A stretch of 64,000 bases of DNA from Candidatus Thermofontivivens primus (lineage in GTDB: Bacteria > Sysuimicrobiota > Sysuimicrobiia > Sysuimicrobiales > Thermofontiviventaceae): the NCBI GenBank assembly GCA_031458695.1, contig JAVKJW010000007.1:28219-92218 (forward strand), written 5' to 3'. The first letter of the stretch is position 1. The number at the start of each line of letters is the position of its first letter. This document shows, piece by piece, positions 13,107 to 60,779 of the stretch. The position numbers were made by a program, and so were the translations under genes. The notes beneath the pieces are model-generated. The model had not been told where the DNA came from and made no database searches. It saw nothing but the letters and a program-made list of their open reading frames with translations.

Positions 13107-13200
13107 CGTTCCCCTAAGATCTTCCCCGTTATGAGACCTTCTCCCTCTCCTCTCGCTAAGCCCCTCACCAAAGCCACTTCTGAGGATCTTGAACCCTCCT

Positions 13201-27663: not shown

Positions 27664-28035
27664 TCATCGCAGCACTTCAATGCGTTGTGCCTCGATCTCG
27701 TTGTAGAACGTGTACTGCCCCACCCGCTTCATCTTGTCGAACCGGCCTACCACACGCACGCGCAGGCCATTCCGGAGGCCCTGGTGACGCCAAGCGAAAA
27801 CTGCCACAGATGCTCCGCCCTCTTCCAGCCGGAAGGTCGTATAAGGGTTGCCACGAGCGGAGATGCGTTCGCGGTAGGCAGCAATGGTTCCCGTCACGCT
27901 GACGATCTGACCGTCGTATCGGTCGGGGTTCTGGACAATATCTCGGACAGTAACCGTTAGTTGGGCGAGAGCTGAGGGAAGCAGTAGGGTGACAAGGAGG
28001 AAGACAAGAAAAACTTTCACACGAAGGGGCTTCAT
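27664..28035 (-). CDS. Secreted small protein, OB-fold-like, function unknown
   Basis: Signal peptide (MKPLRVKVFLVFLLVTLLLPSALAQ) then a beta-rich about 95-aa domain. Downstream of a 100-aa hypothetical in the same orientation. Confidence 0.45.
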   Translation of the reverse strand: MKPLRVKVFLVFLLVTLLLPSALAQLTVTVRDIVQNPDRYDGQIVSVTGTIAAYRERISARGNPYTTFRLEEGGASVAVFAWRHQGLRNGLRVRVVGRFDKMKRVGQYTFYNEIEAQRIEVLR

Positions 28036-34163: not shown

Positions 34164-34277
34164 CAGAAGGTACGCACGATCGAGAATGGCAGATGACACT
34201 TGCTAGCTTGACAAGGAATAAGCCTAACATATACGATTGACATCGGGTATATACTTCCTCTCCAGGAGGTGCCGCCA

Positions 34278-46251: not shown

Positions 46252-46794
46252 TCAAGGGCTGGACCGAATCCGAACGAGATGCCAGATCACATACCCGTAG
46301 ATCGCCCAGATTGTGCCAAGGACCAAACCGAGGACGAGCGGCAAGACCGAATCAGGGTAAGGGCTGATGAACCCTGGCTGGGGACTTAGATGGCGAAGGA
46401 TGGCACGGCCGGGCCGGACGGCAGGCTCGAAAACATGGGCTTCCCTTAGCTTGATCGCAGCCTGGACCGTTCCTGTCTCCCCGGAGGCCTCGGCGACGAC
46501 CTCTTGGGGGCGCAGGGAGGATGGCAGAGAGATCCTCGCCCTGCCCTCTTCATCGGTCGAAGCCTCGGAAAGCTGCAGCCAGCCAAAGGTCATCCGGGCT
46601 TTGAAATTGATCATCACCTCCGGAATGGGATTCCCCAGATCGTCTACAACCTTCGCCACCACCTGGGTTGCCCCATCTGGAGCGGTCTGCACTTCCAGGA
46701 TCACCTTGGCAGGCTCCGCTGCAGATGCAGCGAGGACGTATCCCATCAACGCGACCAATACCCCAAAGGCTACGATGTTACGCCCCAGGCGCAT
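46252..46794 (-). CDS. Exported protein with C-terminal TM anchor, unknown function (last gene of the NrfCD-like operon)
   Basis: Signal peptide (MRLGRNIVAFGVLVALMGYVLAASAA), a beta-rich about 110-aa domain and a C-terminal hydrophobic helix (LPLVLGLVLGTIWAIYGYVIW). Overlaps the NrfD-like gene end by 17 nt. Confidence 0.4.
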   Translation of the reverse strand: MRLGRNIVAFGVLVALMGYVLAASAAEPAKVILEVQTAPDGATQVVAKVVDDLGNPIPEVMINFKARMTFGWLQLSEASTDEEGRARISLPSSLRPQEVVAEASGETGTVQAAIKLREAHVFEPAVRPGRAILRHLSPQPGFISPYPDSVLPLVLGLVLGTIWAIYGYVIWHLVRIRSSP

Positions 46795-48352
46795 CGGATA
46801 CCTCCTTTCGGATCACCGTATGAGGCTCCATGACCGCCTCCCGCGTCTCCCAGATGGAGACGATGGGGAAGAGCTTGCTGAAGAGGAGGTAGATCAACAC
46901 GAACCCCGCAAGCGCCGCTGCGGTGATGGACCACTCCACCCAGGTGGGCTTGTAAATCGCCCAGATCACCGGGACGTTCTGGATGGGGAGGAAGGGGTTC
47001 TCTAGCGTCGGTACAATGATCACAAAGCGCTTCATCCACGCCCCAATGTTGACGAGGAGGGACGCCACGACCGCAGCGGTGATGGGCCAGGTGTGGAAGA
47101 TCGGGAGCAGCCCCAAAAACGACCACCCACCCAGGGCGAAAACGACCCACAACGCTACAGTACGGATGGTATCCACGTTCTCAACCGCAGCGACCGGCGA
47201 TCTGGAGATCAACAGGAAGAAGGAGATCCCTGTCGCCGTGGCAAGCGCAGCCAGGATTGGCCGGGGCTGGAACAGCGGGAGATCTCCGAGCCGCCGGACC
47301 CAGGAGATGCGCGGCAGGGTCAGCAACAGCACGGGAAGGAGCACCCCAACGATTTGAGTGAACCAGAACAGTCGGGCGTATGGCCCGCTGAACACGGCAG
47401 TGAGGTACCCCCGCTCGTGTGTGGCCATCTTGTAGGCTGGGGTGAGGTATTCGGCGAAAGTGAAGTAGGCGTAGATCAGCCCGAGCGCGATCACGAGATA
47501 CCCCATGCGCCGAAAGTGGGACTCGGTGATGTAATCCTCCAGGTGGTACGCCCAGCGAAAGGCCGCCATCGCCGTCACCACCGCCGCTGCCCCGCTGAAC
47601 AGCGCCCCGGAGACGAAGTACGGACCGAAAATCGTGCTGTTCCACCCCGCGCGCAGGGTCATACCGAAGATCCAAGAGACCACAGTGTGTACCGAGACGG
47701 CGATGGGAATGATCAGGACCGCCATCACCGCCATGATCGTCTCCAGGCGATGACGCTGCTCTTCGGTCCCCTTCCACCCTAGCGCCAGGACGGTGTAGAG
47801 GCGTCTCCGCCAGGCCGGGCCTTGGGCGAACCGGTCCCGTAGCAAGGCGATGTCGGGGATCATGGGCACGTACAGGAAGAGCGTGCTGCCCGTCAAGTAC
47901 GTGGTGATGGAGAGGATGTCCCAAAGGATAGGAGACGGGAGGCGCCCGTGGAGCAGCACGTTGAGAATCCGATCTGGGCGGCCCATGTCCACGACGGGCA
48001 TCAGCGCACCCATGAGGAGCGAGGCGAACGTGATCGCCTCGGCCATGCGGGTAATCGGCCGCCGCCACTCGGCCCCTGTGATCCGGAGGATCGCCGACAT
48101 AAGGGCACCCACATGGCTCACCCCGATGAAGAAGACGAAGTTGGTGATATACACGCCCCACATAACATAGTCGCGAAGACCGGTCACACCCAGCCCGTAT
48201 CGGAGTTGTATGGAATAGGCGATGATGCCCCAGGCGATGACCGCGAGCAGGAAGCCCACCAAGCCATAGAAGCCTGGCCCGCTCTCCGTCAGGGAGGAGA
48301 GGAGCTGTACCTCGCGATCCGAGAACTGTTCGCGTAACTGAGGCGATCTCAT
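46778..48352 (-). CDS. NrfD/PsrC-family polytopic membrane subunit (quinone/quinol-interacting)
   Basis: 524 aa, about 10-12 TM, with NrfD-family features (the HGRLPSPILWDILSITTYL region). ATGA-coupled to the upstream Fe-S subunit gene. Confidence 0.75.
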   Translation of the reverse strand: MRSPQLREQFSDREVQLLSSLTESGPGFYGLVGFLLAVIAWGIIAYSIQLRYGLGVTGLRDYVMWGVYITNFVFFIGVSHVGALMSAILRITGAEWRRPITRMAEAITFASLLMGALMPVVDMGRPDRILNVLLHGRLPSPILWDILSITTYLTGSTLFLYVPMIPDIALLRDRFAQGPAWRRRLYTVLALGWKGTEEQRHRLETIMAVMAVLIIPIAVSVHTVVSWIFGMTLRAGWNSTIFGPYFVSGALFSGAAAVVTAMAAFRWAYHLEDYITESHFRRMGYLVIALGLIYAYFTFAEYLTPAYKMATHERGYLTAVFSGPYARLFWFTQIVGVLLPVLLLTLPRISWVRRLGDLPLFQPRPILAALATATGISFFLLISRSPVAAVENVDTIRTVALWVVFALGGWSFLGLLPIFHTWPITAAVVASLLVNIGAWMKRFVIIVPTLENPFLPIQNVPVIWAIYKPTWVEWSITAAALAGFVLIYLLFSKLFPIVSIWETREAVMEPHTVIRKEVSDAPGA

Positions 48353-49272
48353 GGGTGGTTCCCTCCTGTGGCTGCAGGTTCAGACTCGGCAGGCGGAGCG
48401 GGGTAAATGCGCTTTCTCGGTGGGAGGTAGTAGACGCGCGGCTCCGTGCCCAACTCCTCCATGAACCGGTAGCCAGCGTTGTTGCTGACCAGCTCAGAGA
48501 AACGCACCGTCTCTCCCTGGGAGTTGGTCACGGCGTCCTCAACCTGATCCCCAAAATAGATCGCCCCCATGGGGCAAGCCTGGACACAAGCGGGGAGCTT
48601 GCCCTCCTTGACGAGCCCCGGGCAGAAGATGCACTTCTCGGTAACCCCCTTGACGTGCGGGTAATTCCAATCGGTGGAGTACGGGCGGCTCAGCTCCTCA
48701 GGGGTATGCGGCGGCTCCACCCAGTTGAAGTACCGTGCCGAGTACGGGCAGGCAGCTATGCAAAAGCGGCAGCCGATGCAGCGGGAGGTATCCTGGATCA
48801 CGATCCCGTCCTCGCGCTTCCAGGTGGCGCTCACCGGGCAGACCTTGACGCACGGGGGATTGTCGCACTGCATGCACGGCCTGGGGAACCAGTAGGGTGC
48901 CGCCGCCGGGTTGTCCTGCATCTTGTAGACCTTGATCCATTCCTGCCCGGGCGGAACGAAGTGCATCGCAGTGCAGGCCTCGGTGCAAGCCCGGCATCCA
49001 TCGCACCGGCTTAGATCGATGACCATCACCCAGCGGCGCTGGGAGGTCTCCAAGGCAGGCTGGGCCGGCAGAGGAGCTGCGGAGGCTAGGGCGACGCCAT
49101 CCGGCCCATCGGGCAGGTGATCAAGATGGATAAGACGCCCTGGAGAGGAGGCGTCTGCCACCAGCGCAGGAACCCCCTTCCGGCGGATCAGGCGATTGAG
49201 GCCCGCGGGGAGGCTCGCTGTCCCGCCGAGCACGGCAATCCACTTGAGGAAAGCTCTCCGCGAGAGTCTCAT
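48349..49272 (-). CDS. Tat-exported 4x[4Fe-4S] ferredoxin-type subunit (NrfC/HybA/PsrB-like)
   Basis: Twin-arginine signal (MRLSRRAFLKWIAVLGG) and four Cys4 clusters (CDGCRACTEAC, CMQCDNPPCVKVCP, CIGCRFCIAACP, CIFCPG..CVQACP). Confidence 0.8.
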   Translation of the reverse strand: MRLSRRAFLKWIAVLGGTASLPAGLNRLIRRKGVPALVADASSPGRLIHLDHLPDGPDGVALASAAPLPAQPALETSQRRWVMVIDLSRCDGCRACTEACTAMHFVPPGQEWIKVYKMQDNPAAAPYWFPRPCMQCDNPPCVKVCPVSATWKREDGIVIQDTSRCIGCRFCIAACPYSARYFNWVEPPHTPEELSRPYSTDWNYPHVKGVTEKCIFCPGLVKEGKLPACVQACPMGAIYFGDQVEDAVTNSQGETVRFSELVSNNAGYRFMEELGTEPRVYYLPPRKRIYPAPPAESEPAATGGNHP

Positions 49273-49282
49273 CGTGGCCCCC

Positions 49283-49726
49283 TCAAGGAGTCCCCAGCAC
49301 AATGAGTTGACCCTTCTGGCCGGCGTGATCCGGGGCACATCCAACTTTGGTACACGCGAACATGTAAATCCCCGGCCTTCTTGCCACGAACCGCACCGTT
49401 ACGGTCTGGCCTGGCGGGATCTCCTGGATCGAGACGTTGGCCTCGGGGAGGACAAACCCATGAGCACCCTCGGGGTCGGCGTTGGTAATCTTAAGGATCA
49501 CTGTGTCGCCAGCGTTGGCCACAATGGTCCCAGGGACCCACTTGCGGAGCTGCACCGCCTCCTCTGCCCCGAGCGGAACGAGAACCACGTTGAACTCCCT
49601 TTCCTGGGGGACTACAGGCCGGGAGGCGGACAGCGGGAGGGTATACGCCTGCCAGACTAAGTACCCCACGGTCAGGCTTCCCAGTACCACGAAGAAAACG
49701 ATCAACAGCCACCCACGCCCATTCAT
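49283..49726 (-). CDS. Membrane-anchored cupredoxin-like protein, CuA-motif variant (C-x4-C-x3-H-x2-Q)
   Basis: N-terminal TM anchor (GWLLIVFFVVLGSLTVGYLV) and a cupredoxin fold, with upstream His (GAHGF) and FACTKVGCAPDHAGQ. GGAGGG lies 7 nt before the ATG at 49726. Confidence 0.55.
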   Translation of the reverse strand: MNGRGWLLIVFFVVLGSLTVGYLVWQAYTLPLSASRPVVPQEREFNVVLVPLGAEEAVQLRKWVPGTIVANAGDTVILKITNADPEGAHGFVLPEANVSIQEIPPGQTVTVRFVARRPGIYMFACTKVGCAPDHAGQKGQLIVLGTP

Positions 49727-49759
49727 CTGTGCACCCTCCAATGGATGTTCATCCCCTGT

Positions 49760-50302
49760 TCATGGGGTCATCGCCCTCGATTGTTCTTCCCGGATGGCCT
49801 GAAGGAGAAGGTTCACCAGAAGGCCGTCTCGAACGGCATACTCCCTGGCGATCCTCACCAACCGACGGTCCAACGAAGAAGTCGTCTCATCCTTGCGCTC
49901 AAGGAGGGATCGGAGGTATCCCAGGGTTTTGTGCTGTTCCCATAACCATGCCTCCACGCCCTCCATCTCCGCGGTCTTCCATGCCAGGGCTTCCTGGTGA
50001 CACAAGAAGGCCATCCTTTCCACTACCCGGATGAGATCGCGTTTATCGCGTTTATTGCGTTCATTGCGTTTGTTGCGTTCATTGGGTTCATCGGGTTGAT
50101 CGAGTTTGAGCTGGAGCTGCCGGAGATCTTCTGTGAGATCTGTCAACTCCAGCCACTCCAAAACGTCCCGTAACGCTTGAAATCCGTATTTTTTGAAGTG
50201 CTCTAAGACCATCTCCCGGGTAGGATCTCCAATCAGCTCGGCCAGAACCGTATACGCCTGTGCACGTCGAAATGCCACGGTTCGGGTGTATGGGACGCTC
50301 AT
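49760..50302 (-). CDS. Hypothetical all-helical protein with in-frame (NERNKR)n charged repeat; possibly a TorD-like redox-enzyme chaperone
   Basis: About 180 aa, no Cys/His metal motifs. ATGA-coupled to the upstream cupredoxin gene. Chaperone assignment is speculative. Confidence 0.3.
   Translation of the reverse strand: MSVPYTRTVAFRRAQAYTVLAELIGDPTREMVLEHFKKYGFQALRDVLEWLELTDLTEDLRQLQLKLDQPDEPNERNKRNERNKRDKRDLIRVVERMAFLCHQEALAWKTAEMEGVEAWLWEQHKTLGYLRSLLERKDETTSSLDRRLVRIAREYAVRDGLLVNLLLQAIREEQSRAMTP
50037..50095 (-). repeat. Tandem 18-nt/9-nt in-frame repeat (AATGAACGCAA(C/T)AAACGC x2 plus GATAAACGC) encoding NERNKR-NERNKR-DKR
   Basis: Directly visible as CGTTTATTGCGTTCATTGCGTTTGTTGCGTTCATT on the plus strand. 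Confidence 0.6.
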
Positions 50303-50757
50303 GGTCGGTCCACAGAACCCCGGGGAGCGACGACCAACCATCCCGCCATCTTGCGTGCCGAGGGGGTCGAACGATCATGATCGCAAGGGATTGGGCAATA
50401 AAAAGGGAAACGTCCGGCACGCGTGGCCAGGAACTCTGTGGTCCTTTCTTCTCCCTCTGGGACGATCAGCGTGATCCCATAGTCAGGGATAGTGAACCCG
50501 TGGGTTCCTTCGACTGCCTGAAGACGCAGGCGAACCCGCTGCCCCACGACCGCATGGATCACCTCAGGCCTCCACTTCCCATCTCCGGCGATCAAGGAAA
50601 TGCCAGAAGCAGGGGAGATTTCCCCCCACCCGAGGAACCTCGCCAAAACGACCAGCGCCGGAAGGCCGACGACCACGGCCAGGACAAGGATCCACGCCAC
50701 CGCTTCACTGCGCCGCCGGTCCCGCCAGGTCTCCATTAGACTGTAGAAAGCGGCCAT
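50299..50757 (-). CDS. Membrane-anchored cupredoxin-like protein, degenerate CuA-like motif (C-x3-C-x-H ... M)
   Basis: TM anchor (AVAWILVLAVVVGLPALVVLARF), upstream His (GTHGF) and FYCPIPCDHD...KMAG. RBS GGAGGAGGG. Confidence 0.5.
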   Translation of the reverse strand: MAAFYSLMETWRDRRRSEAVAWILVLAVVVGLPALVVLARFLGWGEISPASGISLIAGDGKWRPEVIHAVVGQRVRLRLQAVEGTHGFTIPDYGITLIVPEGEERTTEFLATRAGRFPFYCPIPCDHDRSTPSARKMAGWLVVAPRGSVDRP

Positions 50758-51048
50758 CCCTCCTCCCCCTCCAGCCTTATCCCTTCAGTCGCTCCGGCAT
50801 GGCGAATATGCCTCATCGTTTCTGGCTTGCTCTTTCCTCCACGATCGTGGCACATTCTCCCTAACGAGGGAATTCGTAAAAGGGGGGATTTTGCGGTACC
50901 GCGAGATGCGGAGAAGGGAGTTACCGGATCCCGACATGAAGACTACTGAGAGACACGGAGGGGATGTGGAGGGGTACGAAGGCGCGCTACGATACGATGT
51001 GGGGGGGCACGGCGGCGCCGTGCCCCCCCACAGGCGGGGACGCTGATG

Positions 51049-51708
51049 TTATGGCTTGATGAGGCCCTTGCGGATGGCGTACCGGACGAGGTCAGCAGAG
51101 GTGTGGAGGCCGAGCTTCTCCATAATGTTTTTGCGGTGGGTCTCCACGGTGCGCACGCTCAAATACAACCGCTGGGCGATCTCCTGGTTGGTCAACCCTT
51201 CGGCGATGAGCCGCAATACCTCCTGTTCACGTTCCGTTAGCCCATCCTCCTCTCCTGCAGGCACCCGCCGCCGGTATTCCTCGAGAAGGGCTTTGGCCAC
51301 CGAGGGATAGAGGTAGGATTCATCTTTATAGACCGAGCGGATCGCCTGCACCAGCTCGCTGGCCGCTGCTCGCTTCACCACGTATCCCGAGGCCCCAAAA
51401 CCCAGCATGGGAAGGACATATTCCTTGTGGTCGTGCATGGTCAGGGCTAAGATGCGCACCTCGGGATGCGCGGCCTTGATCCTCCGTGTTGCTTCCAGAC
51501 CGCCAATGCCGGGCATGGCGATATCCATGATCACGACATCCGGACGTACCTCCTCCACCAGGGCAAGGGCCTGTTCCCCGTCTTCCGCCTCCCCGACCAC
51601 TTCGATGTCCGGTTGCGCCTCCAGGATCATCCTGATCCCTTCTCGGAACAGCGCATGGTCGTCCACGATGAGGATACGGATTGCGCGCTCAGACTGCGAC
51701 GCGAGCAT
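51049..51708 (-). CDS. Response regulator, NarL/FixJ (LuxR-type HTH) family
   Basis: REC domain (ILIVDDHALFREG...DVVIMDIAMPG) plus a LuxR HTH (LTEREQEVLRLIAEGLTNQEIAQRLYLSVRTVETHRKNIMEKLG). Confidence 0.85.
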   Translation of the reverse strand: MLASQSERAIRILIVDDHALFREGIRMILEAQPDIEVVGEAEDGEQALALVEEVRPDVVIMDIAMPGIGGLEATRRIKAAHPEVRILALTMHDHKEYVLPMLGFGASGYVVKRAAASELVQAIRSVYKDESYLYPSVAKALLEEYRRRVPAGEEDGLTEREQEVLRLIAEGLTNQEIAQRLYLSVRTVETHRKNIMEKLGLHTSADLVRYAIRKGLIKP

Positions 51709-53200
51709 CGGTCTCGACCTCCGCAGGAACAGGAATCTCCACGTACAGCCTGGTCCCACCCCCCGGCCTGGAGTGGATGTTGAACGTGCCACCCAGGAGG
51801 GTTGCCCGTTCCCTGATCCCAACAAGGCCCATCCCCCTCCGGGAGGCCCCTGGCCCTAGAACCTCAGCCAGCTCAAACCCTCTTCCATTGTCCTCGACGA
51901 AGATCACCAGGAGGGTCCCATCGAAGTCCAGGAGCACCCGGACGTGGCTGGCCTGGGCATGTTTGATCACATTGGTGATGGCCTCCTGGACGATCCGAAA
52001 CGTCGCCGTCTCCACCGTGCTGGGGAGCCTGCGTTCTAGGCCGTGCGCATGCAAGTCGTAGGTGATGCCGAGGGGGACGAGGTGGCTCTCCAGATATCCG
52101 GATACCGCTGGCACGAGCCCTAGGTCGTCGAGGACCCTGGGGCGGAGGTCGAAGATGATCTTGTGGATCTCCTCGAGGGTTTGGGTGGCGATCTCCCTGA
52201 GCCTCCGGAGCCGCTCGGCCACCTGGACCTCCTTCTTGGGGAGGGTATTCTCCAGGAACTCCAGGTTGACCACCAAGGTGGCGATGGCCTGGCTGGCTTC
52301 ATCGTGCAGTTCCCGGGCGATGCGCCGGCGCTCCTCCTCCTGAGCGGAGATGACCTTCGCGAGCAGCTCCTGCCGTTCCCGGTGATGCAATTCCAGCTCG
52401 CGGTTGGCCCGGGCCAGATCCCTCGTTCGCTCCGCAACCCTCTGCTCCAGGGTAGCGTAGGAATCCTGCAGGCGTTCGGCCATGCGGTTAAATGCCTCTG
52501 CGAGGCGTCCAACTTCGTCATTGGTGGCCACCTGCAACCGGACACCCAGGTTTCCGGAACCAATCGCCTCGGCCCCCTGTTGTAATTGCGCAATCGGCCT
52601 GGTGATCGCGCGGGTGAGGAGCAGCGCAAAGATCAAGCCCAGCAAAGCTGCAGAAGCGGCGGAAAGGAGGAGTTCGCGCTTAGCCTGGGCTTTGCTCTTC
52701 CTGGCGAGCTCCAACACACCGGCGGCCCGCTCGGCATGGAGCTGGTGGAACTGGTCCATCTGGGAGAAGATGGCATGGGTAGCCAGGGTCGTCTCCTCGC
52801 TCCTCCTTCCCCCCAGGACCCCGAGGTCAGAGGGACGATCCGCCCGCCCCTGAACCGCCTTATTCCAGGAGGCGAGAGCCTCCAGAAGGTCTGTCTCCCT
52901 GGAGTCGAGGCCATCGCGTTGAAGGGAACGTGCCAGGGCTCCGCTCAGGCTGTGGATCTCCCCCATCACAGCGTCCTGGTGCTTTCTCGCAGGTCCCCCC
53001 GAGAGCGAGGGCTCAAGGGCCCGGCTCATGGCCAGTTGGAGTTCCAGGAACAAGTCGTGTTCCTCGAAGATCCTGGCGACCGCATCTACCTGTCTCGCGA
53101 CGGCCTCCAGGCTGCGGATGGAGATGACCGCCACTGAGACCAGCAACCCTACCAGGACCAGGAACGCCGCGATGAGCTTGGTGCCTAAGGAAAGCCTCAT
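51689..53200 (-). CDS. Sensor histidine kinase, NarX-like topology (TM, periplasmic helical sensor, TM, HAMP, HisKA_3, HATPase)
   Basis: Two TM segments flank an about 150-aa helical domain. HAMP (AEAIGSGNLGVRLQVATNDEVGRLAEAFNRMAERL), H-box (ELHDEASQAIATL) and the HATPase G-boxes are present. Confidence 0.85.
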   Translation of the reverse strand: MRLSLGTKLIAAFLVLVGLLVSVAVISIRSLEAVARQVDAVARIFEEHDLFLELQLAMSRALEPSLSGGPARKHQDAVMGEIHSLSGALARSLQRDGLDSRETDLLEALASWNKAVQGRADRPSDLGVLGGRRSEETTLATHAIFSQMDQFHQLHAERAAGVLELARKSKAQAKRELLLSAASAALLGLIFALLLTRAITRPIAQLQQGAEAIGSGNLGVRLQVATNDEVGRLAEAFNRMAERLQDSYATLEQRVAERTRDLARANRELELHHRERQELLAKVISAQEEERRRIARELHDEASQAIATLVVNLEFLENTLPKKEVQVAERLRRLREIATQTLEEIHKIIFDLRPRVLDDLGLVPAVSGYLESHLVPLGITYDLHAHGLERRLPSTVETATFRIVQEAITNVIKHAQASHVRVLLDFDGTLLVIFVEDNGRGFELAEVLGPGASRRGMGLVGIRERATLLGGTFNIHSRPGGGTRLYVEIPVPAEVETDARVAV

Positions 53201-53206
53201 CCCCTT

Positions 53207-53671
53207 CTACTTCACCACCAGGGTCCCCTTCATCCCTCGCTCGTAGTGGTCCGGCAGGAGGCAACCGATCTCAAAGGTCCCCTTCTTCCGGGGGGTGAAC
53301 TTCACCTCCGCCTTCTTCCCCGCTTTTACCTCCACTTCAAAAATCCCCATGCCCTCTACCTCGGCTTCAGAGGTTTCTACCTTCACTTCCAGATCCTTGA
53401 AGTAAGACTGCTCCTCTGCCCACTCGTGGAGCTCGTCCATGTCGATACCCGGCTTTGGAAGCGCGTACACCATGAACTCGTGGGTGACCTTCCCTTTGTT
53501 GACCAGGACGATCTCGGCAGGAACCCCTGCGGTCAATGTGACCTGCTTCGGGCGGAAGTAATACTCACCCATCTCCAGGGTCACTTTCTGGGCCTTCGGT
53601 GCAGCCGACCCTCCTTGCATCAGAGCAAGGGCGATCACCATAGCGATAGCTAGGATGGTTACTTTTCGCAT
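53207..53671 (-). CDS. Secreted type-1 (blue) copper cupredoxin, plastocyanin/auracyanin-like
   Basis: Signal peptide (MRKVTILAIAMVIALALMQGGSAA). T1 Cu ligands H (THEF), C-x4-H-x4-M (GCLLPDHYERGM). Confidence 0.7.
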   Translation of the reverse strand: MRKVTILAIAMVIALALMQGGSAAPKAQKVTLEMGEYYFRPKQVTLTAGVPAEIVLVNKGKVTHEFMVYALPKPGIDMDELHEWAEEQSYFKDLEVKVETSEAEVEGMGIFEVEVKAGKKAEVKFTPRKKGTFEIGCLLPDHYERGMKGTLVVK

Positions 53672-53732
53672 CTCCCTTCCCTCCTTTTTGTTTGGATTTC
53701 TTGCGCAGGCACCGCAGATGCTTTGTCCTCCC

Positions 53733-54140
53733 TTAGGGTTCCACGATCACCTCCCCTTGCATCTCCGTATGCTCTGGGCTGCATATCACTGTGCAATAGA
53801 AAGGAAAGGTCCCGGTCTTTTGAGGGACAAATTCGATGATCTGGTAGCTCCCGGGGGTGATCGGCCCGCTCTTTACCTTTAACCCCCGGATACGCAGCCC
53901 GTGGGTAACGTCGGCGCTTGTCACCTTCAACCGGACCTTCTCCCCCCTCCTCACCACGATCTCTGAGGGGAGCCATCCCCCTGCCTCATGGGTCCTAGCG
54001 ATGATGGTGATCTCTCCAGAGGCAGAAGCCACGGCCGGATAATAGATGAACTGATAGGCCAGGATGACCACAGGTATCCCCACTACCGTGAGGAGGACAA
54101 GAAGGAACGCAGTCCACTCAAGACGCCGCATCCTCATCAC
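53733..54140 (-). CDS. Membrane-anchored CuA-motif cupredoxin (C-x3-C-S-x2-H-x2-M)
   Basis: TM anchor (WTAFLLVLLTVVGIPVVILAY), upstream His (VTHGL) and YCTVICSPEHTEM, a canonical binuclear CuA ligand spacing as in COX II/NosZ. Confidence 0.65.
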   Translation of the reverse strand: MMRMRRLEWTAFLLVLLTVVGIPVVILAYQFIYYPAVASASGEITIIARTHEAGGWLPSEIVVRRGEKVRLKVTSADVTHGLRIRGLKVKSGPITPGSYQIIEFVPQKTGTFPFYCTVICSPEHTEMQGEVIVEP

Positions 54141-54141
54141 C

Positions 54142-55599
54142 TCACCCGAGATAGAGCCACAGGAAGAGCACCGTCACACCTGCCAGGTATGCAGAGAGGG
54201 GGACGAGCGCCCGCCTGGCCTTGGTGGATGGGGAGAAGTTTTGCCTGGCAATGGTATCCCCCACCTTGATGGAGAGAACAAGGCCCAGAAGGAGCGTGGG
54301 AACCTGGATGTAGGGCAACAGGTGCGGTGCATAAGGCGTCCAGGGATACCCTTTAGTCCCGAAGAGGTCCCATCCCCAGCCGAATGGATCAGAGAGGACC
54401 GAGAGCGCATAGGAGATGTTGGGGAGCACGAACGAGAAGCTGAAGGCGATCCATCCCGCGAGCCCTAGGGGAACCAGGGTGTAGGCGTAGTCCACGAACA
54501 GCTTCTTCAGGTCAGGGCGGCTTCCACCGGCGAAGACGCGGGAGAGCCAGGTAAATACAAGGTGAAGGGCTGGGGCCGCGACTAGGATGGATCCCAGGAA
54601 GATCGCAGCATACAGGAGAAGGCCAGAGAACGAGGTGAAGTTGGCCCAATCCTTGATCCTTCCCCAAGGCCCCAGCATGACGATGGAGTACATGATCGCC
54701 GCCCCTAACATGATGAAGGCCTTGTAGGCCTCATCCAGCTTGCGTCCCTTCTCCACTTGGAGGTCCTGAAAGAAGGGACGAGTGCGGATGGTGATGTTCT
54801 CGTAAGGACAGGCCTTGATGCACTCGGTGCACAAGAGACAATAGGTGTTCCGCTCCATGGGCGCTCCGGGGAACTCGAAGTTGGGGCAACCGTACCCTCC
54901 CACGCCCCCGACCCGAAGGCTTGCCTCGGTGCTCCCCCGGAAGCAGGCCTTGAACTGGCACTGCCGGCAGACCTCTGCATCCACCCGCCGCACCTCCACG
55001 GGAGCCGCCATGGAGTAAAGCCCCAGGAACCCTCCCACCGGGCAGAGGTAGCGGCAGAAGGTCCTTCGCTCAAACACCAGGTGGGTGACCGCGGCGATGA
55101 TTACGAGCCCCAGGAGAACGGCTCCAGTGACGATGGGACGGGTGGTGAGGACAGCGCTGGTGAGAGCGATGGATGCGAATCCGAAATTGGCTACCCACAG
55201 GTTCCGCAGCCCCTTGGGCCACTTTCGTGCCAGGCCAAAGGTTTTCGGCTTCCAGAGGATGAACGCCCGGCGCTGCATCCACTCCCCGACGGCGGGGATC
55301 GGACACATGGCACACCAGATCCTCGCCCCGAAGGGCACGAGGACCAGGATCAGCAGGGCCCACCAGACGATCCAGACGAAGATGATGGCGAAGTTCTTGG
55401 CCCCAATCGGGGTCCCCAAGAACCCAGCCATGATCACGATGGTGAAGACGAACAGGTTGGGGAGGATCAGGGCGAACTGCAGCCACCGCTGGCGAACGAG
55501 CCATCGCACAGGACGATATCCCAGGAGGTCTTTGCGCCAGGCAACCTCCTGGGGCGGACGCAGGATAGGACGCGCAATCGCAGTGCTACGCTGTGCCAT
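54142..55599 (-). CDS. NapH/MauN-type membrane polyferredoxin (2 x CxxCP plus 2 x [4Fe-4S] ferredoxin motifs) with extra C-terminal TM domain
   Basis: WCAMCP and FCRYLCP motifs on TM-flanking loops. Ferredoxin clusters CRQCQFKAC and CLLCTECIKACP. About 5 additional C-terminal TM helices. Confidence 0.65.
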   Translation of the reverse strand: MAQRSTAIARPILRPPQEVAWRKDLLGYRPVRWLVRQRWLQFALILPNLFVFTIVIMAGFLGTPIGAKNFAIIFVWIVWWALLILVLVPFGARIWCAMCPIPAVGEWMQRRAFILWKPKTFGLARKWPKGLRNLWVANFGFASIALTSAVLTTRPIVTGAVLLGLVIIAAVTHLVFERRTFCRYLCPVGGFLGLYSMAAPVEVRRVDAEVCRQCQFKACFRGSTEASLRVGGVGGYGCPNFEFPGAPMERNTYCLLCTECIKACPYENITIRTRPFFQDLQVEKGRKLDEAYKAFIMLGAAIMYSIVMLGPWGRIKDWANFTSFSGLLLYAAIFLGSILVAAPALHLVFTWLSRVFAGGSRPDLKKLFVDYAYTLVPLGLAGWIAFSFSFVLPNISYALSVLSDPFGWGWDLFGTKGYPWTPYAPHLLPYIQVPTLLLGLVLSIKVGDTIARQNFSPSTKARRALVPLSAYLAGVTVLFLWLYLG

Positions 55600-56146
55600 C
55601 GGTAGCCTCCTCGCTTCGATCTCGGATTTCCTCTCCACGGCGCCACAGCATCAAGACCGTCCCACCCGCCGCGAGCACGGTCAGGGCGAGCGCTCCCCAC
55701 AGGGTGTAGTTGGGGCCTACAACCACCTCGCCGATCATGAACGGGTGCAGGTTCCCGCAGATCACCGAGCAACGGTACCGGATCTTTCCAGGGCGATTGG
55801 CCACAAAGGAGACCACCGTCTCCTGCCCCGGGTAGACCTTCGCGTTGATGCCGTACCCATCGATGTAGAGACCGTGGACGACATCCTCGCTCGTGACCCG
55901 CAGCGTCACGCGGTCACCCAGCCTTACCCGGATGCGCGGGGGGCTGTAGGCAAACTGCCTGGCGGTGATGGTGAATTCTCGCTCCCGCCCGCCCGCCGGT
56001 CCGGCCGCTTGCGACACATTGCTGACCACAAGGATGTCGAGAAGCAACAGAAAGAAGACAAAGGAGAGAACCAGCGAGAGGCCCGTCAAGAACCTTGCCC
56101 TCCCACCGTGAGATCTTAACCCCATACGCCGTGTGTGTCGGAACAC
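55586..56146 (-). CDS. Membrane-anchored CuA-motif cupredoxin (C-x3-C-G-x2-H-x2-M, identical spacing to COX II)
   Basis: TM anchor (FLTGLSLVLSFVFFLLLLDILVV), upstream His (VVHGL) and RCSVICGNLHPFM. A second hydrophobic helix at the C-terminus. Confidence 0.65.
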   Translation of the reverse strand: MFRHTRRMGLRSHGGRARFLTGLSLVLSFVFFLLLLDILVVSNVSQAAGPAGGREREFTITARQFAYSPPRIRVRLGDRVTLRVTSEDVVHGLYIDGYGINAKVYPGQETVVSFVANRPGKIRYRCSVICGNLHPFMIGEVVVGPNYTLWGALALTVLAAGGTVLMLWRRGEEIRDRSEEATDGTA

Positions 56147-56329: not shown

Positions 56330-56983
56330 TCAGGAATCAGGTGGACGCAGGAGGCCTTTGCGGGCGGCGTAGGCGACCGCCTCCGCCCTGTTGCGCAGGT
56401 GGAGCTTATCGAGGATGTTCTTCATATGGAACTTGACGGTGTTCTCGCTGATCCCAAGGGAGGTGGCGATCTCCCTGTTCGTTGCACCCCCGGCAACGAG
56501 CTGTAGCACTTCCTTCTCCCGCTCGGTCAGTTCCTCTTCCAGGACCTCTCGGGGCCGCTGACCCCCGTGCGTCCTGGCGAACTCCTCCAAGATCTTGCCG
56601 GCCAGCTCCCGGGAGATGACCGCTTCCCCCCGGGCGGCGCTCGTGAGGAGATCGAAGAACTCCTCGGCCTTCAGGTTCTTCAGGAGGTAACCCTGGGCTC
56701 CGCTTTTGATGGCGTCAAAAAGGTCGCGGTCGTCGTCGGAGACAGTAAGAATCACGATCTTCACCTGGGGGAATTCGGCCTTGATGAGGCGGGTTGCCTC
56801 CAGGCCGCTGCATCGAGGCATCCGGATGTCCATGAGAACGACATCCGGTTGGAGCTGGCGCGTCTTCTCCAGGGCCTCCAGGCCGTCGTTGGCCTCCCCG
56901 ACCACCTCCATCCCCCTCGCCTGGAGGAGGCTTTTGATCCCGTCCCTGAACAAGGGATGGTCGTCGGCAAGCAGGATCCTCAT
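56330..56983 (-). CDS. Response regulator, NarL/FixJ (LuxR-type HTH) family
   Basis: REC (ILLADDHPLFRDG...DVVLMDIRMP) plus LuxR HTH (LTEREKEVLQLVAGGATNREIATSLGISENTVKFHMKNILDKL). ATGA-coupled to the kinase. Confidence 0.85.
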   Translation of the reverse strand: MRILLADDHPLFRDGIKSLLQARGMEVVGEANDGLEALEKTRQLQPDVVLMDIRMPRCSGLEATRLIKAEFPQVKIVILTVSDDDRDLFDAIKSGAQGYLLKNLKAEEFFDLLTSAARGEAVISRELAGKILEEFARTHGGQRPREVLEEELTEREKEVLQLVAGGATNREIATSLGISENTVKFHMKNILDKLHLRNRAEAVAYAARKGLLRPPDS

Positions 56984-58356
56984 ACTTCGGCACCCTCCCT
57001 CCTTGCCGTCCTTACAGGGACAGAGACGATCACCTTGGTCCCCCGAAATGGAGCCGTTTCGAGACGGAACGTGCCACCCACAGCTTCGGCACGCTCCCGC
57101 ATGCTCTGGAGGCCAAACCTTGGCCAGGGGCTCGGAGGAAGGTGCTGGGGGTCAAAGCCTCTTCCGTTATCCTCGATGATGATCTGGACCTCCTCTGCTC
57201 CCTCGAGAAAGCGTACCTTGACGGCGGTGGCCTGGGCGTGCTTGCGGACGTTGGTTAGGGCCTCCTGCACAATGCGCAGGAGCTGCACCTCCACCTCCGG
57301 GGGAAACGGAAGAGACCCCGGCTCGCCCTCTATCTCCACGGCGATCCCATAAAGCTGTCTGTAGTGATAGAAGTACTCCTTGAGGACAGACATCAGGGTC
57401 CGATCCGGGCTCAGGGAGGTCCGCAACCCGAGGATTGCCTCCCGGATGTCGGCATACACCTCACGGGCCATGGACTCAAGCTGGGCGAGCTGGGATGAAG
57501 CTTCTTCTATCCGCCCCGCGTTGAGAAGCTCGCGGACCGCCTGGGCCTTGGTGTTCACGTACCCGAGAACCTGTGCCAGTCCATCGTGCATCTCCCTGGC
57601 GATGCGCTCACGTTCTTCCAGAATCGCCAGGCTCTGCACCTGGGCGTGGAGCCGGGCGTTCTCAATGGCGATCGCTGCCTGGTTGGCCAAGCTGCTCAGG
57701 ACTGTCTCCGCCTCCCGGTCAAAGCCATTCGGGCGGCGGCTCCCTGCCATGAGGATCCCTATCACCTTGGATCCAGTACACAGGGGGATGGCGAAAATCT
57801 CCTTCATCTCAGGAGCGGGAAACATTTTCCAAACGTCCGCATGGGGATCGGTGAACCTCAGAACCTGGCCGTCCCCCCCAAAGCAGGGGATCCATGAAGG
57901 TTCTATGGGAAGACGGACGTACGAAAGATTACGGGAATTGTCGACCAGAAGTCGCCAGGTGATCTCTTGGTGCTCATCAAGAAGCCCGAGAGCAGTGACG
58001 TCGCTGTTGAGAAGCCGGTGCGTGCTGACCACCACGGTCCGGATCACGTGATCCAGGTCCAGCTTGGCGGAAATCTCCGTGCCAATCTGGTAGAGGGCCT
58101 GGGTGAGCGCATTTCGAGCTGCCAGCTCCTTGTTGCGGGCAACGAGCTCTTCCTCCATGCGATCGATGATCCCAAAGACAAGGGAAGAAAATATGTGGGC
58201 CCCCACAAGCATGGCAAACAGGACCATCAGGCTAGAAGCCCAGACAGGAAGGTAGTGATCCACTGGAGAGCTGTGCCGGATATATTCAAAGATAGCAATG
58301 AACAGCGCCGGCCCCCAGGTTGTCAGGAGACGCAGGTTTCGCTTGTTCGTAAACAT
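56980..58356 (-). CDS. GAF-domain sensor histidine kinase (TM x2, GAF, HisKA_3, HATPase)
   Basis: N-terminal TM helices, a GAF-like region (the VTALGLLDE..AIPLCTGSKVIGILMAG region), H-box (REMHDGLAQVLG) and HATPase (EDNGRGF). The start is uncertain (58356 or 58395). Confidence 0.8.
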   Translation of the reverse strand: MFTNKRNLRLLTTWGPALFIAIFEYIRHSSPVDHYLPVWASSLMVLFAMLVGAHIFSSLVFGIIDRMEEELVARNKELAARNALTQALYQIGTEISAKLDLDHVIRTVVVSTHRLLNSDVTALGLLDEHQEITWRLLVDNSRNLSYVRLPIEPSWIPCFGGDGQVLRFTDPHADVWKMFPAPEMKEIFAIPLCTGSKVIGILMAGSRRPNGFDREAETVLSSLANQAAIAIENARLHAQVQSLAILEERERIAREMHDGLAQVLGYVNTKAQAVRELLNAGRIEEASSQLAQLESMAREVYADIREAILGLRTSLSPDRTLMSVLKEYFYHYRQLYGIAVEIEGEPGSLPFPPEVEVQLLRIVQEALTNVRKHAQATAVKVRFLEGAEEVQIIIEDNGRGFDPQHLPPSPWPRFGLQSMRERAEAVGGTFRLETAPFRGTKVIVSVPVRTARREGAEV

Positions 58357-58622: not shown

Positions 58623-59101
58623 TCACGGGTTCCTTTTGGTGCTGTGCGGGTTTCCACCGGAAGATCCGCCGCTCCAGGCGTTCGAACGCCGCAAAGATCC
58701 CCAGCATGACCGCGACACGAGGACGATCAGGGCGATGGTCAGGGCAGCGTTGTAGGTGCTGTGGGCAAAGGAGAGCAGGTAACCCAACCCGCGGCTCGAC
58801 GCCACGAACTCACCCACGATGGCTCCGGTAAAAGCAAAGCCGGTAGCCCCCTTGAGACCTCCCAGTAGCCAGGCGGCCAAGGAGGGAATGGAAACCTCGC
58901 GGAGAAGATCAACCCTCCCTCCACCAAGTGCGCGAACCCGATCTATCAGCCGGGATCGATCTCCCGGATCCCGGAGTACACAGCAAAGAATATAAACCAC
59001 CGTCACCAGGAGGAAGCTGAGGGCGATCTTGGAAGCGATGCCGATCCCGAACCAGATTACGAACAGGGGTGCGAGGATGATCCTGGGCCCGGCGTTAAGT
59101 G
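58623..59101 (-). pseudogene. C-terminal remnant of an SsuC/TauC/NrtB-type ABC transporter permease, truncated by IS insertion
   Basis: The minus-strand translation (LNAGPRIILAPLFVIWFGIGIASKIALSFLLV...REVSIPSLAAWLLGGLKGATGFAFTGAIVGEF) is a BPD_transp_1 C-terminal half. The reading frame continues into the IS inverted repeat. No N-terminal half is present on either side. Confidence 0.6.
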
Positions 59102-60779
59102 GTTCTCGGTGAAAAATGGAGCCGGAAACCGGCATCAATTCATGATCGCATCTCCAATTCGCCGGCAAAATAGCAGGAGTTCCCATTCCCGTGGCGAATC
59201 GAACTGGTGTGTGCACAAGCACATCTATCCGAACCGCCAGGGAGGGAACTCCGATGCAAGTGATTCGCCATACACATTCAAACTCCTGCGGAGGGGTGAG
59301 AGGATGCTCCGCCTGAGGGATCCGCAGGAGTCGTTGTGGTACGAGATCCTTCCCCCTGAGGTGCGCACCCTCCCTGAGGACCTGGCCACTGTCGATTCCC
59401 TGTTGGATGATGAGCGGTTCTTTGCCCCCTTTCGGGAGCAGTTCTCTACATCGGTGGGCCGCCCAACGATTCCTGTGCAGACCTATATCCGGATGATGTA
59501 TTTGAAGCACAGCCGCAAGCTGAGCTACGAGACCCTGGTCAAGGAGGTCTCTAGTAGCATCGCCTGGCGTATCTTCTGCCGCATCCCCCTGGACAGGGAA
59601 GTGCCAGATCGATCGACCCTGATCAAGCTGACGCGCAGATTTGGACCTGAGGTCATAAAAGCATTGCTTGACCTGTTGGTTCAAAAGGGCATAGAGGAGA
59701 AGCTGATCCGGGGTCGCAAGGTACGGGTAGATGCCACCGTGGTCCAATCCCCCATCAAACATCCCACGGACATCGGGCTGCTTGCAGATGGCGTACGCAT
59801 GGTCACGCGGATTACAAAGCGCCTGCAGGAAGTAGGGGTGGCTGCGCAAACGAAGTTCCGGGATCGGACACGTACAATCAAGAAGGTGGTGCGGGCAGTA
59901 GGGTATGCGCTGCGAGGGAAGGCCAGGGAGGCTCGGGAAGCCCTCCGACAGCAGACTATGCGCGCACTGGACATCACCAAGCAGGTCGTCTACCAGGCCG
60001 AGCGCATCCTTCTGGAGAGCAGGGCCAGGGTAGAAAAGATACGGGGATGTGCTGCGGATGCGGGGAAGCAACTGTGGCAGGAACTGCACCATACTTTGAA
60101 CTTGGTCACCCGCGTCATGGCCCAGACGGTGCTCAGCCTGAAGGGGGTCCGGTCGATCCCTGACAGGATCGTTAGCCTGTTTGATCCCCAGAGCGAGGCC
60201 CATCTGCCGGGGCAAGGCCAACCGGAAGACAGAATTTGGCTACAAAGCGGTGCTCACCGAGACCGAGGAGCGGATCATCACCTATTTCGAGGTCTATCAA
60301 GGCAACCCCGCCGATAGCACCCTGCTCATTCCGGCATTTGAAGAGCATGTGCGGGTGATTGGGAAGGTCCCCTGGGCAGTGGCTACCGATCGCGGATTGA
60401 CCAGCAAGGCCAACGAGGCCTACCTGGAGGAACGGGCAGTCCAAAGGATCAGCCTTCCCTATCGAGGTCGTCGCAGCCCTCCCCGCAGGGACTACGAGTA
60501 CCAAAGGTGGTTCAGGAGGCTGCAGCGCTGGAGGGCAGGACAGGAAGCTACCATCAGCCTGGGAAGCCGCAAGTACGCGTGGCTGCACAGCCAGATGAGG
60601 GGACATGATGGTGCACGCATCCACTTCGGGTGGGGGATCTTCGCCTACGACATCAACCGGCTGGCTGCCCTCAGTAGGTCCGCAGCATAAAGGAAGGTGA
60701 TGGAGAGATCCCCTGCTCATCATAGAACCTGACCTGCCCACATACGGATTGTAAAAAATCGGACTTTTTCACCGAGAAC
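59102..60779 (+). mobile_element. IS5/IS1182-like insertion sequence (about 1.68 kb) with 15-bp terminal inverted repeats GTTCTCGGTGAAAAA
   Basis: Left inverted repeat at 59102-59116, right inverted repeat (reverse complement) at 60765-60779. Encodes a DDE transposase. No clean target-site duplication is visible. Confidence 0.7.
59304..60690 (+). CDS. IS5/IS1182-family DDE transposase, split by a +1/-1 frameshift near 60200-60230
   Basis: N-terminal part in frame 0 (DDE_Tnp_1-like: PTIPVQTYIRMMYLKH...VDATVVQSPIKHPTD) continues in another frame (GKANRKTEFGYKAVLTETEERIITYFEVYQGNPADS...ATDRGLTS), matching the conserved RKGKAxKxTEFGYK transposase motif. RBS GGAGGGG before the ATG at 59304. Confidence 0.7.

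Follow-up and report, generated by a model that had tools for sequence, protein, structure and literature searches.

The 64,000-nucleotide stretch of contig JAVKJW010000007.1 of Candidatus Thermofontivivens primus analyzed here (the window) encodes a gene cluster in which membrane-anchored, stand-alone cupredoxins of the CuA type occur together with two different putative quinol dehydrogenases. Module A (positions 53207-56146) comprises the CuA-type cupredoxin Cup4, the NapH/NosH-like polytopic iron-sulfur (Fe-S) membrane protein Fer45, a second CuA-type cupredoxin, Cup3, and the type-1 cupredoxin T1cup; the first three are referred to as the trio. Module B (46252-49726) comprises the CuA-like cupredoxin Cup1, an NrfC-like Fe-S protein, an NrfD-like membrane subunit, and the immunoglobulin-like (Ig-like) protein Big1. 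On balance, we lean toward the view that the two modules are quinol dehydrogenases feeding extracytoplasmic copper carriers, which would serve reductases encoded elsewhere. In the open-access literature no description of either module was found, an earlier description elsewhere being possible. An earlier note on this DNA had singled out the four cupredoxins Cup1 to Cup4 and overlooked the NapH-like and NrfCD-like partner genes as well as the fifth cupredoxin, T1cup, which together hold most of the functional information. All genes of the cluster are located on the minus strand; gene calls were taken from L091, a sister contig sharing 99.6% identity with the window across the cluster, and homologous loci in other genomes are likewise given L numbers.

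Cupredoxin domains and their ligand motifs

The four open reading frames (ORFs) described previously are present, and their ligand motifs can be read off the translations as claimed. Cup4 carries CSVICGNLHPFM (C-x3-C-G-x2-H-x2-M) and Cup3 carries CTVICSPEHTEM (C-x3-C-S-x2-H-x2-M), each together with an upstream His, so that the complete ligand set H...C-x3-C-x3-H-x2-M is found in these two proteins but not in Cup1 and Cup2. The Cup1 motif, CTKVGCAPDHAGQ, reads C-x4-C-x3-H-x2-Q (in full, H94-G-F...C130-TKVG-C135-APD-H139-AG-Q142), and that of Cup2, CPIPCDH, reads C-x3-C-x-H. An HG(F/L) motif precedes the Cys loop in all four proteins. T1cup features the residues H(THEF)...C-LLPD-H-YERG-M, i.e., the type-1 pattern H...C-x4-H-x4-M. 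In Pfam searches, Cupredoxin_1 (cutoff, 27 bits) was matched by Cup1 (32.2 bits), Cup2 (28.5 bits), Cup3 (35.4 bits), Cup4 (32.0 bits), and T1cup (53.5 bits, in addition to 27.2 bits for Copper-bind). The COX2 family PF00116 (cutoff, 22 bits) was matched by Cup4 (40.1 bits) and Cup3 (30.5 bits), with Cup1 scoring below the cutoff (16.2 bits) and Cup2 giving no match. Cup1 to Cup4 each possess an N-terminal hydrophobic helix preceded by K/R residues, to which Cup4 adds a C-terminal helix; judged by hydropathy and charge distribution, all cupredoxin domains are predicted to face the outside, behind K/R-flanked transmembrane (TM) helices.

The best matches among solved structures were subunit II of the ba3 oxidase of Thermus thermophilus and loop chimeras, with E values of 4e-19 for Cup4, 7e-10 for Cup3, and 3e-9 for Cup1. 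HMMER alignments placed the His, Cys, Cys, His, and Met/Gln residues on ba3 residues H114, C149, C153, H157, and M160 (numbering counted along the aligned stretch of 1EHK), in line with the previous assignment of the cysteines to the CuA ligand loop. The alignments of Cup4 and Cup3 cover all five side-chain ligands, and both proteins are predicted to carry a CuA-type binuclear copper site, whereas in Cup1 Gln replaces Met and one additional residue separates the cysteines. For Cup2, the structure matches were weak and limited to NirK, nitrosocyanin, and CupA (E value of 0.0095 for CupA). AlphaFold predicted Cup1 (predicted local distance difference test [pLDDT] of 84.9) and Cup2 (pLDDT of 89.1) to be cupredoxin sandwiches located behind an N-terminal helix, with lower confidence for the ligand loops. 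Foldseek searches with these two models retrieved the CuA domains of NosZ and ba3 oxidase, nitrosocyanin, NirK, and a Bacillus Cupredoxin_1 protein, the root mean square deviation between the Cup1 model and the NosZ CuA domain being 1.7 to 2.2 Å. Since the pairwise identity of Cup1 to Cup4 is only 27 to 41%, their paralogy must be old.

As the earlier note had stated, the proteins lack a catalytic oxidase or nitrous oxide reductase domain. A tblastn search of the 64 kb with NosZ, COX1, COX2, COX3, NosD, NosL, PCYCGC, CopA, and multicopper oxidase queries returned only CuA-domain matches to the four cupredoxins; there was no COX1, COX3, or NosZ propeller. A Pfam analysis of ten ORFs, seven of them of at least 500 residues, likewise revealed no oxidase, no heme-copper subunit I, and no NosZ. 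The possibility that the genes are truncated COX II pseudogenes beside ctaD does not apply either, as the window lacks ctaD and the ORFs, which are conserved, show no disruption and evolve under purifying selection. In comparison with L095, a lineage of approximately 75% identity, the ratios of nonsynonymous to synonymous substitution rates (dN/dS) were 0.09 for Cup1 and the NrfC-like gene, 0.12 for Fer45 and T1cup, 0.14 for the NrfD-like gene, 0.17 for Cup3, 0.24 for Cup4, and 0.29 for Big1, which argues that all eight orthologous genes are functional. Stand-alone CuA proteins had been called unusual; this holds for characterized proteins but not for genomes from metagenomes, where the trio is common, as detailed below.

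Conservation and genomic context of the two modules

A scan for Fer45 with one genome per species yielded 557 confirmed loci with approximately 45 to 60% identity, mostly from Chloroflexota but also from Rokubacteria, Methylomirabilia, Acidobacteria, Bacillota, Marinimicrobia, and a Caldarchaeum. Neighborhoods were counted in the best 78 species-level loci with a recovered Fer45 ORF, the denominators varying by feature. Fer45 is preceded by a cupredoxin gene in 65 of 74 loci and followed by a gene for a CuA cupredoxin in 68 of 74, with fusion of the latter to a CxxCH cytochrome c domain in 57 cases; the CuA motif is retained in 70/73 upstream and 57/60 long-form downstream proteins. The homologues of Cup4, small proteins annotated merely as cupredoxin domain-containing, show the C-x3-C-x3-H-x2-M motif in all 74 of 74 clusters. 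A PCYCGC protein is encoded further 5' of the trio in 43 of 66 loci, and a DUF1573 Ig-like protein is frequently inserted ahead of Fer45. OmpR-type regulators are common at trio loci, the most frequent kinase cluster is of the HisKA_3/PAS type, and a T1cup-type protein follows the trio in Thermoflexus loci.

Fer45 is predicted to have approximately eight to nine TM helices and matches Pfam Fer4_5 with 33.7 bits. Eleven Cys residues are invariant in 87 family members, namely, those of a CxxCP motif (C109-x2-C112-P), a CxxxCP motif (C195-x3-C199-P), and two ferredoxin-type groups (residues 224-251 and 267-277). With its polytopic architecture, two Cx(2-3)CP motifs, and two ferredoxin-type Cys groups, the protein conforms to the NapH-type pattern, but it scores far below the NCBIfam cutoffs for NapH (TIGR02163 NapH/MauN, 42.8 versus 213 bits; NF007013, 35.4 versus 234 bits). 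As in NapH, the Cys motifs lie in K/R-rich loops and are presumably cytoplasmic; the outer loops contain no conserved His or Met in the 87 sequences. The N terminus is a 55-residue K/R-rich tail, and FMN_bind was not matched. Apart from Fer4_5, there was only a weak match to the generic Fer4 family and none to Fer4_18 or FixG_C, and no cbb3 oxidase genes were found among the ORFs examined. The neighbors of Fer45 are cupredoxins, with no NapG/NosG periplasmic Fe-S subunit alongside.

Several trios are part of nitrous oxide reductase gene clusters. In L001 (Limnochordaceae), the trio is located directly 5' of nosZ and the nosD, F, L, and Y genes, and it likewise directly precedes nosZ and nosDFLY in L096 (Armatimonadota; same assembly as L091) and L097, the latter sharing a 150.8-kb contig with the window-like locus L095. 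The trio also adjoins nos genes in L008 (Clostridia), L015 (Chloroflexota), and L077 (Caldarchaeum; divergent orientation). The cutoff for Sec-type (clade II) NosZ of 625 bits was exceeded in L001 (910 bits), L015 (855 bits), and L077 (732 bits). In a neighbor-joining tree of 87 Fer45 proteins, the proteins of the window and L095 are sister to that of the nos-linked locus L096 (68% identity), and this group then joins the nos-linked L001 and L008 (61%), while the Chloroflexota loci of the PCYCGC type form a separate large clade. Module A of the window is thus a duplicate of the nos-linked module, which occurs in its own lineage and in four other phyla, and both Armatimonadota-like lineages hold two trio copies, as a nos-operon copy and a window-type copy were found in each. 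In Wolinella, NosGH has been described as a NapGH-like quinol-oxidizing module for NosZ, and nos clusters of Gram-positive bacteria feature a cytochrome c gene, nosC, ahead of nosZ (PMC3475470). In position, the nos-linked trio corresponds to NosGH plus the NosC1/C2 cytochromes of Wolinella and to NosC of Gram-positive bacteria, with copper carriers as substitutes. Between nosZ and nosD, a polytopic membrane protein without Pfam or NCBIfam match is encoded in L096 (L096:14361-14954) and L001 (L001:12643-13071); its position is that of the four-helix "NosB" ORF of Gram-positive and Wolinella nos clusters.

Other trio neighborhoods yielded further observations. The PCYCGC protein (PF13798) occurs before the trio in loci among L003-L087 (e.g., L003:7305-7748), and its strict association with a pair of CuA proteins hints at a factor for the assembly of CuA sites, acting on copper or on thiol redox state. 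In Methylomirabilia and Rokubacteria (L019:5179-6222, L047:8614-9564, and L074:3597-4544), the NapH-like gene is directly preceded not by a cupredoxin gene but by one for a seven-bladed YVTN propeller, each blade of which carries one His. The idea that the propeller located 5' of Fer45 in these two groups is a split lactonase-type NosZ is not supported, as it is a generic YVTN protein (108 bits versus a cutoff of 700). Multicopper oxidases of 350 residues near Chloroflexota trios were considered as NirK, which would have linked the trio to denitrification, and this was rejected (196 bits for copper_res_A versus 85 for NirK; cutoff, 296). In L083, a 717-residue multicopper oxidase fused to a YVTN beta-propeller is encoded a few kilobases 5' of the trio (L083:3612-5765).

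Module B recurs in three loci, L088, L089, and L090, in the order HisKA_3 kinase, GerE regulator, T1cup orthologue, Cup1 orthologue, NrfC-like, NrfD-like, and Big1-like gene, L090 ending inside the NrfD-like gene; T1cup of the window is 53 to 65% identical to the product of the gene directly 5' of Cup1 in these loci. In L095, module B follows module A side by side as in the window. The Cup1 family comprises 25 clusters, and the residues H94-G-F and C130-x3-G-C135-A-x-D-H139-A-x-Q142-x-G-Q are invariant in 14 aligned members; the Gln motif is therefore a conserved variant rather than a product of decay. To our knowledge, the combination of C-x4-C with an axial Gln has been studied only in engineered proteins, and Cup1, if it is a Gln-ligated CuA protein, would be the first natural example known to us. 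The NrfC-like protein matches Pfam Fer4_11 and TAT_signal as well as NCBIfam DsrO (184.5 bits versus a cutoff of 200), the NrfD-like protein matches Pfam NrfD (100.4 bits) and DsrP (101.8 bits versus a cutoff of 350), and the pair thus conforms to the NrfCD/DsrOP-type pattern while remaining below the equivalog cutoffs. A twin-arginine translocation (TAT) signal marks the NrfC-like protein for export, its predicted location being the outer side of the membrane. Big1 shows a weak Big_1 match (31.2 bits) and is kept after the NrfD-like gene in L088, L089, and L095 with 43 to 48% identity. Module B contains neither ActA or ActE heme c subunits nor a second NrfD-like subunit. A complete aa3 oxidase operon, equipped with its own complete COX2 gene, lies immediately ahead of the module in L088, and the neighbors in L089 and L090 are copper related (HMA ATPase, CopD, and YHS). 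A pair of TM-anchored cupredoxins with the motif C-x10-C-x2-D-H-x2-M and an extra His accompanies the aa3 operon of L088 (L088:5013-9476) and the SHOCT/CopD region of L089 (L089:14998-15910); with 30 to 35% identity to Cup1 and Cup2, these proteins represent a further variant of the CuA-like loop.

Cup2 and the neighboring ORF unk193 differ from the other genes in their distribution. The degenerate C-x3-C-x-H motif reported for Cup2 was confirmed, but the protein also retains a Met that aligns with the one of the canonical Met-x-Gly, a feature that had been overlooked. According to the superfamily alignment, H86, C121, C125, and M137 are retained, the canonical His position is occupied by Arg, His127 is located two residues earlier, and the loop contains a five-residue insertion. 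A search of 5.8 billion proteins returned only Cup2 itself; its closest relatives are the downstream-type cupredoxins, with 34 to 39% identity over nearly the full length. For unk193, there was no Pfam or NCBIfam match, and a search of 1.84 billion representatives yielded no more than its own cluster and three weak matches. Both genes are absent from the syntenic locus L095, where a short gap separates RR1 and Cup1. Cup2 and unk193 are a lineage-specific insertion, and Cup2 is most plausibly a downstream-type cupredoxin that was duplicated in this lineage and is diverging.

The layout of the cluster is given in Table 1. The two kinase/regulator pairs, HK1/RR1 and HK2/RR2, show similarity at the level of the NarL family only; HK1 reaches no NCBIfam cutoff, and a sensor specificity beyond this level was sought and not found. 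Counts of promoters and terminators were no higher than expected from shuffled sequences, and an Rfam scan of the window from 45 to 60 kb detected no RNA family.

Table 1. Genes of the cluster, listed in order of decreasing window coordinates
Feature	Position	Strand	Description
HK2	56980-58356	minus	Histidine kinase with two TM helices, GAF, and HisKA_3; 5' of module A
RR2	56330-56983	minus	NarL-like response regulator; 189.5 bits to NarL versus cutoff of 250
Cup4	55586-56146	minus	Upstream-type CuA cupredoxin (predicted site), 186 aa, N- and C-terminal TM helices
Fer45	54142-55599/55638	minus	Polytopic membrane Fe-S protein resembling NapH/NosH; 485-498 aa, start probably at 55599
Cup3	53733-54131/54140	minus	Downstream-type CuA cupredoxin (predicted site), 132-135 aa, N-terminal TM anchor
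T1cup	53207-53671	minus	Type-1 (blue or green) cupredoxin, 154 aa, signal peptide, no lipobox Cys
HK1	51689-53200	minus	Membrane histidine kinase with periplasmic helical sensor, HAMP, and HisKA_3 (Pfam on identical L091 gene)
RR1	51049-51708	minus	NarL/GerE-type response regulator
Cup2	50299-50757	minus	Orphan degenerate downstream-type cupredoxin, 152 aa, TM-anchored
unk193	49760-50341	minus	Lineage-specific ORF; no TM helix, no domain
Cup1	49283-49726	minus	Gln-variant CuA-like cupredoxin, 147 aa, TM-anchored
NrfC/DsrO-like	48349-49272	minus	Four ferredoxin-type Cys groups; TAT signal SRRAFLK
NrfD/DsrP-like	46778-48352	minus	Quinol-interacting membrane subunit, 524 aa, approximately 10 TM helices
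Big1	46252-46794	minus	Bitopic: signal/TM helix, outside Ig-like domain, C-terminal TM helix; closes module B

Just 5' of HK2, at positions 58623-60317, the ORFs of a DUF772 transposase and of a broken ABC permease overlap, and a DDE_Tnp_1 transposase is encoded near the end of the window (63090-63905). As genes for a two-component system of the OmpR type and for a cytochrome b occupy the position upstream of HK2 in L091 instead, the window strain has undergone a rearrangement there. Genes for branched-chain amino acid transporters flank the cluster. Between positions 28000 and 46000, the GC content drops from approximately 61% to 50 to 55% over a plus-strand block of ABC-transporter genes, which may be a horizontally acquired island; the ORF at 34269-35861, the only gene of this block analyzed with Pfam, encodes an SBP_bac_5 binding protein. 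A RecD2-type helicase (1617-3875; 752 residues) and a fused trehalose-6-phosphate synthase/phosphatase (10881-13367; 828 residues) are ordinary, unrelated genes.

A possible electron route from quinol to copper and competing explanations

In the model that we favor, menaquinol would be oxidized at the NrfD-like subunit of module B and at the NapH-like protein Fer45 of module A. From module B, electrons would leave through the exported NrfC-like Fe-S protein to Cup1 and/or T1cup, a path that appears straightforward by analogy with NrfCD-type complexes. In module A, for which NapH, NosH, and NosR serve as models, they would pass from the quinol site directly to the membrane-tethered CuA centers of a putative complex. 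The CuA centers, possibly via the soluble blue-copper protein T1cup, would then deliver them to CuA-bearing terminal enzymes encoded elsewhere. The best candidate for the acceptor is nitrous oxide reductase, because the window trio is sister to nos-linked copies; the aa3 oxidase, which is suggested by the position of module B behind the aa3 operon in L088, ranks second. A more far-reaching version, in which a largely heme-free, copper-based respiratory branch leads from the NrfCD-type dehydrogenase via Cup1, blue copper, and the CuA/NapH-like/CuA complex to NosZ or another CuA enzyme, is speculative, and we regard it as rather doubtful.

Several points weigh against an electron-carrying role. 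The Fe-S motifs of Fer45 are presumably cytoplasmic and cannot pass electrons straight to CuA centers on the outside; the role of these clusters is likewise unexplained in NapH and NosR, so that the same gap exists in the route from quinol to carrier proposed for module A. The window encodes no terminal reductase or oxidase, and the electron acceptor is therefore a guess. No protein of the cluster reaches a curated NCBIfam cutoff, copper binding by the cupredoxins is predicted from sequence alone, and the Fer45 tree is a simple neighbor-joining tree without support values. Moreover, nosZ adjoins the trio in only 3 of 78 loci, most of the family, i.e., the Chloroflexota clade, being without it. 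PCYCGC genes and OmpR-type regulators accompany the trios of this clade, and their surroundings sometimes also include DUF305 genes, copper-resistance-like multicopper oxidases, and P-type ATPases; such a neighborhood fits copper handling, and T1cup weakly resembles CopI (56.5 versus 280 bits and 18.1 versus 200 bits).

The main rival explanation accordingly assigns the cluster to copper handling, with the NapH-like protein acting as a CcoG-like Cu(II) reductase and the cupredoxins binding, buffering, and delivering copper for resistance or for the metallation of cuproenzymes; we consider this unlikely for the window. CcoG, a cupric reductase, is a membrane protein of the Fer4_5 family that contains two [4Fe-4S] clusters and belongs to the same broad protein class as Fer45, and CupA of Streptococcus pneumoniae is a membrane-anchored cupredoxin acting as a Cu(I) chaperone (PMC7558416). 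Besides the PCYCGC protein that precedes the Chloroflexota trio in the 43 of 66 loci mentioned above, genes within 10 kb of trios encode CopA-type ATPases (13/78 loci), copper-resistance-like multicopper oxidases (at least 9/78), DUF305, HMA, and YtkA proteins, and OmpR-type regulators, and CopI is the best NCBIfam match of T1cup. However, copper genes beside operons for copper proteins may reflect mere copper-dependent co-regulation, and the window and its closest relatives lack nearby copper homeostasis genes and group with the nos-operon copies. Specifically, the 64-kb window contains no CopA, multicopper oxidase, PCYCGC, NosD, or NosL gene, and its regulators belong to the NarL family, not to the OmpR type. 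Retention of the full CuA ligand set and, in most loci, fusion to cytochrome c are typical of redox carriers, not of chaperones; the C...C-x-M-x-M site of CupA is absent; and Fer45 lacks FixG_C, Fer4_18, and conserved His or Met residues in its outer loops.

A redox role of a different kind would be a NosR-like maintenance function, in which the trio supplies occasional electrons that keep the catalytic copper center of NosZ or another cuproenzyme active instead of carrying the bulk flow. NosR has been proposed to keep the NosZ copper center active in clade I organisms, and its C-terminal half is a NapH-like core with CX3CP motifs and two cytoplasmic Fe-S groups, which the NapH-like core of Fer45 resembles. 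The trio is located inside the nos operon in nos-linked loci, among whose called genes there is no NosR-type (FMN_bind) gene. Yet Fer45 has no FMN-binding periplasmic domain and the window copy lies outside any nos operon, and we judge this function to be improbable. The earlier note had instead viewed the four cupredoxins as a single family, derived by repeated duplication at this locus and followed by gradual adjustment of the redox potential or loss of one copper site. The fold and the positions of the His and two Cys residues are indeed common to all four, Cup2 looks like a recent divergent copy, and module A duplicates a nos-linked module. As a single graded series, this idea is not supported: the four proteins are just 27 to 41% identical to one another, three of the four types are separate families with their own motifs and with orthologues in fixed operon positions in other phyla, and the Gln variant Cup1 is under strong purifying selection (dN/dS, 0.09). 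Largely refuted by synteny, it is very unlikely to be correct; only Cup2 looks like a recent duplicate in decay, as it has no homologue among 5.8 billion proteins, is absent from L095, and is closest to the downstream type. Least probable, and in our view hardly tenable, is the idea that the genes, functional or as pseudogenes, represent subunit II of a heme-copper oxidase or of a nitric oxide reductase of the CuA type, with subunit I encoded nearby. While ba3-type subunit II gave the best Protein Data Bank matches and module B of L088 is located beside an aa3 operon, that operon has its own complete COX2; the window contains neither COX1 nor COX3 within 64 kb nor an oxidase among the ORFs of at least 500 residues submitted to Pfam, and its ORFs are intact and under purifying selection.

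Significance and comparison with known systems

If the far-reaching, largely heme-free version of the model, regarded above as rather doubtful, is correct, the CuA/NapH-like/CuA trio, present in more than 550 species genomes, would be a previously unrecognized respiratory complex. The electron route to clade II nitrous oxide reductase, an enzyme that is a major sink of a potent greenhouse gas, is poorly known outside Proteobacteria, and the nos-linked trio is a concrete, testable candidate for the donor or activator of clade II NosZ in non-proteobacterial lineages. To this, the window adds a duplicated second copy of the trio, wired to an NrfCD-type module and NarL-type regulators. The presence of the trio in hundreds of Chloroflexota genomes without nosZ makes the choice between respiration and copper handling a broad question. 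Of bioinorganic interest is the loop of the Cup1 family, a naturally occurring CuA-like variant that is one residue longer and in which Gln replaces the axial Met.

The closest parallel to module A is the NosGH system of Wolinella succinogenes, in which a NapH-type Fe-S protein encoded in or beside a clade II nos operon is likewise combined with small extracytoplasmic carriers, NosC1/C2 (PMC3475470). Unlike that system, the trio has no NosG-type subunit, CuA cupredoxins with or without a fused cytochrome c replace the monoheme cytochromes, Fer45 possesses an additional C-terminal block of approximately five TM helices, and the window copy is detached from nosZ. With NosR of clade I, the trio shares the NapH-like core with its CX3CP motifs and two cytoplasmic [4Fe-4S] motifs and the association with NosZ; it differs by the lack of a periplasmic FMN domain and by two separately encoded CuA cupredoxins on the extracytoplasmic side. 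CcoG, too, is a membrane protein in which the Fer4_5 domain is combined with two [4Fe-4S] clusters, and the Chloroflexota trio has a copper-gene neighborhood, but FixG_C, Fer4_18, and the ccoGHIS context are missing from Fer45.

The individual cupredoxins resemble the CuA domains of ba3 subunit II and NosZ in fold and in the H, C, C, H, and M ligands, Cup4 being approximately 38% identical over 99 residues as counted by eye. They differ in that they are stand-alone proteins, with C-x4-C and Gln in Cup1 and a displaced His and a longer loop in Cup2. PmoD of methane and ammonia oxidizers is reportedly a small membrane-anchored cupredoxin with a CuA site formed across a homodimer interface, one Cys being contributed per chain. 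It is similar as a stand-alone, membrane-anchored CuA-type cupredoxin outside oxidases and NosZ, whereas the window proteins hold the classical two-Cys loop in one chain and have a different genomic context. CupA and CopI are more distant: CupA has a membrane-anchored cupredoxin fold to which Cup2 is weakly matched, and T1cup weakly matches CopI, but the C...C-x-M-x-M site of CupA is absent from all five cupredoxins of the window, which also lacks CopA.

For module B, the relevant precedent is alternative complex III (ACIII), which passes electrons to a membrane-tethered cupredoxin, auracyanin. Like ACIII, DsrOP, NrfCD, and QrcCD, module B pairs an NrfC-type Fe-S protein, predicted to be exported, with an NrfD-type quinol subunit; unlike these, it contains no heme or molybdopterin-like subunits, and its partners are CuA-like and type-1 cupredoxins and a bitopic protein with an Ig-like domain. 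Neither copper nor auracyanin is mentioned in a review of NrfD-type complexes (PMC8076601). Every part of the cluster belongs to a known superfamily, and what appears to be new is the partnership of NapH/NosH- and NrfCD-type modules with stand-alone CuA-type cupredoxins.

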